Sequence record: MZ170040.1
Direction: 5' to 3' (one strand)
Length of the DNA: 64,000 nt
Source of the DNA: Escherichia phage vB_EcoM_FJ1
The notes beneath the pieces were generated by a model. It was given only the letters and a program-made list of their open reading frames with translations. It had not been told where the DNA came from and did not search any database. How positions within the stretch are numbered: the stretch's first letter is position 1; the number at the start of each line of letters is the position of its first letter. A program made the position numbers and the translations under genes. Shown here one piece after another: positions 19,323 through 19,987 of the stretch.

Positions 19323-19409
19323 TGGTGGGGAGTGGTGGAGTCGAACCACCCGAGTCGCAATGACAATGGATTTACAGTCCACACCGCTACCTCTACGGGA
19401 TAACTCCCC
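19323..19409 (-). tRNA. class-II tRNA, anticodon GUA (tRNA-Tyr) - not part of the T4 set
   Basis: 87 nt; acceptor GGGGAGT/ACTCCCC, T-arm GGTGGTTCGACTCCACC, long variable arm, anticodon loop CTGTAAA; encoded CCA. Confidence 0.6.
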
Positions 19410-19418
19410 TAATTAATT

Positions 19419-19495
19419 TGGTGACCCAGACCAGATTTGAACTGGTAACCTTTCCCTTATGAGGGGACTGCTGCTAACCATTGAGCTACAGGGCC
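19419..19495 (-). tRNA. tRNA-Ile (anticodon CAU, lysidine-type; alternatively Met)
   Basis: Anticodon loop CTCATAA; T-loop TTCAAAT; encoded CCA; position matches T4 tRNA-Ile. Confidence 0.6.
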
Positions 19496-19496
19496 T

Positions 19497-19572
19497 TGGT
19501 GCTGATTGACGGAATCGAACCGCCGACCTTCTCATTACAAGTGAGTTGCTCTACCTACTGAGCTAAATCAGC
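19497..19572 (-). tRNA. tRNA-Thr (anticodon UGU)
   Basis: Acceptor GCTGATT/AATCAGC; anticodon loop CTTGTAA; T-loop GGTTCGATTCC; encoded CCA. Confidence 0.75.
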
Positions 19573-19574
19573 AA

Positions 19575-19661
19575 CGGAGGCGATAGGATTTGAACCTATG
19601 AGTCGCCGGAGCGACTGCCGGTTTTCAAGACCGGTGCATTAAACCACTCTGCCACGCCTCC
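19575..19661 (-). tRNA. tRNA-Ser (anticodon UGA)
   Basis: Class II; starts GGAGGCGTGGCAGAG; anticodon loop CTTGAAA; CCA not encoded. Confidence 0.75.
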
Positions 19662-19663
19662 AG

Positions 19664-19737
19664 TCTCCGTGGCAGGATTTGAACCTACGACATTCTGCTC
19701 CCAAAGCAGACGCTCTACCAAACTGAGCTACACGGAG
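19664..19737 (-). tRNA. tRNA-Pro (anticodon UGG)
   Basis: Acceptor CTCCGTG/CACGGAG; anticodon loop TTTGGGA; T-loop GGTTCAAATCC; CCA not encoded. Confidence 0.75.
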
Positions 19738-19747
19738 TAAATTAAAT

Positions 19748-19821
19748 TGGAGCGGATAATGAGAATCGAACTCACATCATCAGATTGGAAGTCTGAGGTA
19801 ATACCATTATACGATATCCGC
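19748..19821 (-). tRNA. tRNA-Gly (anticodon UCC)
   Basis: Acceptor GCGGATA/TATCCGC; anticodon loop CTTCCAA; encoded CCA. Confidence 0.75.
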
Positions 19822-19826
19822 AAATT

Positions 19827-19913
19827 TGGTGCGAGAAGTGGGACTCGAACCCACATGGAAATCATTCCGCAGCATTTTAAGTGCTGTGCCTTTACCAATT
19901 TGACCATTCTCGC
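19827..19913 (-). tRNA. tRNA-Leu (anticodon UAA)
   Basis: Class II; matches T4 tRNA-Leu as recalled (GCGAGAA...CTTAAAA...GGTTCGAGTCC...CCA). Confidence 0.85.
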
Positions 19914-19914
19914 G

Positions 19915-19987
19915 CTGGGAATAAAGGACTCGAACCTTTGCATCCTGGAATCAAAATCCAGTGCCTTACCAACTTGGCTAATTCCCA
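19915..19987 (-). tRNA. tRNA-Gln (anticodon UUG)
   Basis: Acceptor TGGGAAT/ATTCCCA; anticodon loop TTTTGAT; T-loop GGTTCGAGTCC; CCA not encoded. Confidence 0.75.

Follow-up and report, generated by a model that had tools for sequence, protein, structure and literature searches.

A T2/T6-type tRNA-Tyr gene beside segB in Escherichia phage vB_EcoM_FJ1 and its probable role against host tRNA cleavage

We analyzed the tRNA array of Escherichia phage vB_EcoM_FJ1 in a 64,000-nucleotide (nt) stretch of sequence record MZ170040.1 (hereafter, the window) and found a class II tRNA-Tyr gene with anticodon GUA (19323-19409, minus strand; ARAGORN) between a T4-type tRNA-Ile gene and segB, which encodes a free-standing homing endonuclease. 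We consider it likely that this tRNA, of the type found in phages T2 and T6, supplements tyrosine decoding against cleavage of the tRNA-Tyr variable arm by the PtuAB proteins of the defense systems Septu and retron-Eco7, and that its dose can be boosted by SegB. The tRNA itself is known already: hundreds of phage records in GenBank annotate it, and experiments on T6 and T5 have established its mechanism. We infer by analogy that this phage behaves like T6.

Identity and distribution of the tRNA-Tyr gene

The gene, GGGGAGUUAUCCCGUAGAGGUAGCGGUGUGGACUGUAAAUCCAUUGUCAUUGCGACUCGGGUGGUUCGACUCCACCACUCCCCACCA, consists of an acceptor stem GGGGAGU/ACUCCCC, a connector UAUC, a D arm CCGU-AGAGGUA-GCGG, a single U, an anticodon arm GUGGA-CUGUAAA-UCCAU, the variable arm UGUCAUUGCGACUCG and a T arm GGUGG-UUCGACU-CCACC, with the discriminator A and an encoded CCA after the acceptor stem. 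The anticodon G34-U35-A36 lies in the seven-nucleotide loop CUGUAAA, flanked by U33 on one side and by a purine (position 37) on the other. The variable arm is 15 nt long and contains a GUC/GAC stem, and the T loop carries UUCGA. The original prediction had described a class II tRNA with the loop CUGUAAA and tyrosine identity, and ARAGORN agreed, calling Tyr(GUA) with the 15-nt variable arm; GenBank records annotated with tRNAscan-SE also label the homolog tRNA-Tyr. The critical determinants of the Escherichia coli tyrosyl-tRNA synthetase (TyrRS) are A73 and U35 (PMC9976931), and the discriminator A73 and the pair G1-C72 can be read from the window gene. Judging from these identity elements, the gene would specify a working tyrosine tRNA that host TyrRS can charge.

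The minimum free energy fold of the single sequence was not a cloverleaf and was not significant (z = -1.49), and comparative analysis was used instead. We collected 67 unique viral homologs from the IMG/VR database with a search motif that spanned the 3' strand of the D arm and the anticodon loop. The parser left the anticodon stem unconstrained, and 334 of its 335 cells were paired, individual positions showing as many as five pair types. Most positions of the acceptor and T stems showed two to five pair types, pairing there having been a parsing requirement. RNAalifold run on the 67 homologs returned a cloverleaf, and A73 was present in every one of them. The stem of the variable arm changes in a compensatory manner in ESCO5, where it reads AUC/GAU.

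Searching with the 87-nt tRNA as the query, we found matches in 1,353 phage records; in 509, identity reached at least 95%. We also took 40 evenly spaced rows from the 717 records matching an Ile-Tyr query, a sample giving an estimate and not an exact count of the share of Tequatrovirus with Tyr: 23 were T4-sized genomes carrying the gene and six had the T4-type Ile without it. Among T4-like phages, T4 with its missing Tyr is the minority case. It was published in 2008 that T2L, RB1 and RB3 have tRNA-Tyr and tRNA-Asn and that T4 has neither (PMC2330249). The tRNA had earlier been called extra relative to the T4 set; it is extra in that comparison only, as T2, T6 and most Tequatrovirus records carry one. 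The complete Ile-Tyr-segB junction of the window was found in only 24 records.

The lineage was also seen at ~75-98% identity in unrelated lytic phages, including the rV5-like slur16, Karamvirus, T5-like and FelixO1-like phages, Phapecoctavirus, a Klebsiella phage and an Enterococcus phage. The copy of the rV5-like phages is ~97% identical (84 of 87 positions in slur16), a similarity that suggests recent exchange between phage families. A host origin of the gene was rejected: in a blastn search of 5,426 complete E. coli genomes, all 273 hits were plasmid-borne and none was chromosomal. In the one plasmid inspected, the tRNA-Tyr gene lies in a small tRNA array beside genes for a DNA ligase and a tyrosine recombinase/integrase, and the segment has a phage-like look.

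Counterdefense and the competing explanations

The tRNA-Tyr of the window is identical to that of T6 at 86 of 87 positions and SegB at 218 of 221, and the order Thr-Ile-Tyr-segB-Arg is found in both (T6 locus: Chihara et al. 2026, Nat Commun, PMC13096335). The single differing base gives the window a G-C pair in the anticodon stem in place of the G.U pair of T6; T6 furthermore lacks Pro and Ser and has seven tRNAs against nine in the window. During T6 infection, Septu EcB88, consisting of the ATPase PtuA and the HNH nuclease PtuB, cuts E. coli tRNA-Tyr at C48/A49 in the stem of the variable arm, and it also cuts the phage's own tRNA-Tyr at C48. Overexpression of the T6 tRNA-Tyr rescues the phage from Septu, and deletion of the tRNA-rich region sensitizes it. 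T6 escapers contain tandem copies of a 718-bp unit that combines tRNA-Tyr with a segB shortened by 28 codons, and this amplification is SegB-dependent. T4, which has SegB and no tRNA-Tyr, was unable to escape Septu, and T2 was resistant. The T6 tRNA works by its dose, as a supplement or decoy, and by SegB amplification, not by resistance to cleavage (all PMC13096335).

A second PtuAB system, that of retron-Eco7, depletes tRNA-Tyr, and rescue by a T5-family tRNA-Tyr under a strong phage promoter requires that both the anticodon and the stems be intact (Azam et al. 2024, PMC11555353). The T5-family tRNA has the same architecture as that of the window, its variable arm is almost identical (GGUCAUUGCGACUCG in the T5-like phage "ende", UGUCAUUGCGACUCG in the window), and it belongs to the same counterdefense class (PMC11555353). 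The two are only ~81-83% identical (71/88 globally; 82.9% over the blastn match), and the T5 family differs in having its own strong promoter and a large tRNA-rich region, with no segB-based amplification. The host gene tyrU shares with the phage gene the loop CUGUAAA, A73, G1-C72 and a long variable arm with a GUC/GAC stem; the alignment is identical at 57 of 89 positions, and the variable loop is 3 nt long in the host and 5 nt in the phage. Positions 46-49 read GUCA in the window tRNA and in tyrU alike, covering the mapped C48 cut site, and the C48 site in the variable stem is also common to the window and T6.

The segB gene of the window (18611-19276, minus strand) is an open reading frame (ORF) of 221 amino acids (aa) that matches the Pfam GIY-YIG family at 26.8 bits against a cut-off of 22.6, and its ATG is separated from tRNA-Tyr by a 46-nt spacer. 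The catalytic residues Y17 and G19 are kept and the ORF is intact, so that the endonuclease appears competent as far as can be read from its sequence. A repeat search located a microhomology whose upstream copy, ATTAATTAG, lies at the 5' edge of tRNA-Tyr (19409-19417, minus strand) and whose downstream copy, ATTCATTAG, lies within segB, in its 3' part and some 28 codons short of the stop (18691-18699, minus strand). The two copies match at eight of nine positions, with ATTAG exact at 19413-19409 and 18695-18691, and are spaced by 718 nt; no exact direct repeats of at least 7 nt at 690-745-nt spacing were found in the region searched. T6 has the identical repeat with the identical 718-nt spacing. 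A 5-nt repeat is weak on its own, and it counts here because T6 shares both the repeat and the spacing and because the spacing equals that of the published unit. The window holds one tRNA-Tyr-segB copy and is unamplified (ARAGORN).

The mechanism that these likenesses point to would start with transcription of tRNA-Tyr within the polycistronic tRNA cluster. Host PtuAB would cut tRNA-Tyr in the variable arm during infection, and the phage copy, itself cleavable, would enlarge the pool as a supplement or decoy. The adjacent SegB could then raise the dose, with the 718-bp tRNA-Tyr-segB unit being amplified through the microhomology. If the cassette acts as in T6, the phage should be less sensitive than T4 to hosts carrying Septu and retron-Eco7 and should be able to escape by the 718-bp amplification, which is relevant to the choice of T4-like phages for therapy or as laboratory models. 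Several observations weigh against a role centered on defense. One copy of the gene gives T6 only partial protection, and the phage tRNA is cleaved as well (PMC13096335). T2 is resistant and T6 intermediate, yet their tRNAs differ by 1 nt, indicating that other factors matter. The tRNA family occurs in very different phages, such as those of Enterococcus and Klebsiella, and on phage-like plasmids, which could mean a more general benefit. Finally, this phage uses tyrosine codons at 1.6 times the frequency seen in an E. coli sample, so that supply alone may explain some or all of the selection.

The last point leads to the strongest competitor, which we nevertheless find unlikely: that the heavier tyrosine codon use of an AT-rich phage is enough to keep the tRNA, with no need for a defense. 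Tyrosine makes up 4.35% of the 17,671 codons in the ORFs of the window and 2.71% by the same measure in a 50-kb sample of E. coli K-12, and the tRNA family is very widespread in lytic phages of many hosts, both points in favor of translational supply. However, codons for Asn and Lys are raised equally (1.6-1.7 times) and neither has a phage tRNA. The other eight tRNAs all have U34 or a modified C34 and thereby read codons ending in A, a pattern that Tyr(GUA) does not share. T4, whose tRNA region is ~94% identical and whose codon usage is presumed to be close, does without Tyr, and the published phenotypes are defense-specific.

A benefit to the phage is hardly needed if the gene persists as a passenger within the co-conversion tract of a selfish segB and in a recombination-prone tRNA array, an explanation to which we give very little weight. 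The array is indeed mosaic, with T2 having Met-Tyr-Asn-Arg and no segB, T6 missing Pro and Ser and T4 missing Tyr, and the exact Ile-Tyr-segB junction is as rare as stated above. SegB is moreover known to cut at the 3' ends of tRNA genes and to drive exclusion of the Met-Tyr-Asn-Arg block of T2L (PMC2330249). Against this, the tRNA is kept with compensatory changes in distant phage families in which no segB is annotated alongside, and this conservation therefore argues for purifying selection on a working tRNA; the T6 experiments also show a phenotype.

The original prediction had linked the added tRNA to a tRNA-cleaving host defense; the general idea stands, given the work on T6 and T5, but the nuclease is the ATPase-HNH pair PtuAB cutting in the variable arm and not an anticodon nuclease of the PrrC/RloC type. 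Replacement of a host tRNA-Tyr cut by a PrrC-, RloC- or colicin-E5-like enzyme, with the phage copy resisting through sequence differences, has a known principle behind it, in that phage tRNA-Lys rescues T1 and T7 from PrrC170, but we regard it as highly improbable here, since the seven-nucleotide loop CUGUAAA is the same as in tyrU and so bears no mark of such an escape and offers no loop basis for resistance, the mapped tRNA-Tyr cuts of the relevant defenses lie in the variable arm, and no tRNA-Tyr-specific PrrC or RloC is reported in the literature covered.

The connector between the acceptor and D stems

In a usual tRNA, a connector of two nucleotides (positions 8-9) precedes the D stem. 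The window tRNA-Tyr has a connector of four (UAUC) in front of the D stem CCGU/GCGG, and host tyrU differs in having the two-nucleotide connector and a CCC/GGG D stem. In all 67 homologs, a 7-bp acceptor stem is followed by an invariant UA, by freely varying nucleotides (two in 64 homologs, three in the other 3) and by CCGU...GCGG, which never changes; the GCGG half of this stem was fixed by the search motif and the CCGU half was free. In the homologs, the stem closes a canonical D loop with A14, R15, G18-G19 and A21. ARAGORN places the D stem differently: its UCCC/GCGG contains a C.C mismatch in the interior and encloses a loop of 9 nt without A14. We rejected this alternative: its four pairs hold in 53, 28, 0 and 67 of the 67 homologs, respectively. 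On the window sequence, the fold with CCGU/GCGG has an energy of -30.1 kcal/mol and the ARAGORN fold one of -26.8 kcal/mol, and RNAalifold prefers the fold with the four-nucleotide connector. Thus, as far as comparative folding can tell, this phage tRNA-Tyr family appears to have a connector of 4-5 nt instead of two.

The connector bears on how the gene scores against generic models. In Rfam, eight of the nine window tRNAs pass at 54-73 bits, Arg included, and Tyr alone is weak: within the clan, tRNA-Sec scores best, with 35.4 bits where 47 are required, and the RF00005 score is hidden by clan competition. An identity as selenocysteine tRNA was rejected on the subthreshold hit, the many mismatched pairs and the GUA anticodon. 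We attribute the weak score to the atypical D-arm region and connector rather than to decay, and the 4-5-nt connector probably accounts for it.

The same motif gave 78 matching stretches in 185,579 bacterial and archaeal species, represented by one genome each. About 55 of the 78 were tRNA-like, mostly from Lachnospiraceae metagenome-assembled genomes and Tahibacter, and none was in Enterobacteriaceae. A full-text literature search and a review of non-canonical tRNAs, a check that was not exhaustive, gave no description of such a connector. The non-canonical core could conceivably alter recognition by host nucleases, modification enzymes or TyrRS, and this is perhaps why phages circulate this tRNA-Tyr and not a copy of the host gene, although we find the idea doubtful.

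The tRNA array and other features of the window

ARAGORN, run on the whole window, identified nine tRNA genes, all on the minus strand, with eight packed within 19323-19987 and Arg(UCU) ~700 nt further on. In the order of transcription, the cluster starts with tRNA-Gln(UUG) (19914-19987), the class II tRNA-Leu(UAA) (19827-19913), tRNA-Gly(UCC) (19748-19821), tRNA-Pro(UGG) (19663-19737), the class II tRNA-Ser(UGA) (19574-19662) and tRNA-Thr(UGU) (19497-19572), all found by both ARAGORN and Rfam. Next comes a tRNA with anticodon CAU (19419-19495), labeled Met by ARAGORN and matching the Rfam tRNA model at 53.9 bits. In alignment, its body equals the T4 tRNA-Ile throughout, with T4 having T where the encoded CCA of the window starts. 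We take it to be the T4 tRNA-Ile gene, the Ile label following established knowledge of T4. Tyr and segB follow, and then tRNA-Arg(UCU) (18531-18607; ARAGORN and Rfam), which is identical to the RB33 gene at 76 of 77 positions. Further along the same transcription unit, and on the same strand, are rnaD (species II stable RNA; 18411-18529), matching the annotated RB33 rnaD at 114 of 121 positions, and rnaC (species I stable RNA; 18267-18405), matching its RB33 counterpart at 136 of 139. The unit ends in an intrinsic-terminator-like hairpin (18193-18216), in which a 10-bp stem with seven G-C pairs is followed by TTTTT.

The order of the eight genes from Gln to Tyr and their span, 19323-19987, had been predicted correctly, as had the placement of segB and then Arg(UCU) after Tyr. 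Across the 2-kb region, identity is 98.9% with Escherichia phage UPWr_E4, in which the same nine tRNAs are annotated, and ~94-96% with T4, T6, RB32 and RB33. With T4, the window shares the order Gln-Leu-Gly-Pro-Ser-Thr-Ile-(segB)-Arg-rnaD-rnaC-terminator on one strand, its eight tRNAs included, and the sole departure is the Tyr between Ile and segB. The expectation that T4 has the same set minus Tyr was borne out by the comparison: T4 lacks a block of ~110 nt containing tRNA-Tyr, a clean indel that falls after the 3' end of tRNA-Ile and before the segB leader. The segB leader and the SegB N-terminus diverge between the two phages, SegB being identical at 210 of 221 positions.

The tRNA-Tyr genes of T2/T2L and the window agree at 85 of 87 positions, and their flanking spacers are nearly alike, with AATTAATT upstream and ATTT downstream (Brok-Volchanskaya et al. 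2008, PMC2330249). T2 differs in its array, Gln-Leu-Gly-Pro-Ser-ORF-Met-Tyr-Asn-Arg, which has no segB and carries tRNA-Asn after Tyr; its Met(CAU) and Arg are other isoacceptor genes. Compared with T2, the segment 18531-19495 of the window looks like a mosaic of cassettes, combining the T4-type Ile(CAU) and Arg with a Tyr in T2-matching spacers. Homing of segB into the Asn site was considered and rejected: no remnant of a T2-type tRNA-Asn was found between Tyr and Arg in the window, the best local alignment scoring 17.

Two side observations concern segB. A 9-bp hairpin (19278-19299, minus strand) lies directly upstream of its ATG, over the likely ribosome-binding site (TTAGGGACTGA TATG), and may restrain translation of SegB when the long tRNA transcript is the message. 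In the whole window, 15 matches to the published SegB motif RAWTSGAAC were counted against 6.2 expected, a number that none of 100 shuffles reached. A motif scan placed two of the sites in the T arms of tRNA-Thr (19512-19520) and tRNA-Gly (19763-19771), and four lie in the repeats of a Hoc-like gene. The latter is a 664-aa ORF (56355-58349, minus strand) with four tandem repeats of 288 nt (96 aa; Tandem Repeats Finder score 1321). Its C-terminus presumably resembles T4 Hoc, which we take to be 376 aa long, and the ORF looks like an outer-capsid decoration protein with more Ig-like domains than T4 Hoc. Another tandem repeat, with a period of 24/48 nt, ~2.7 copies and 70-81% matches, is found at 26841-26971.

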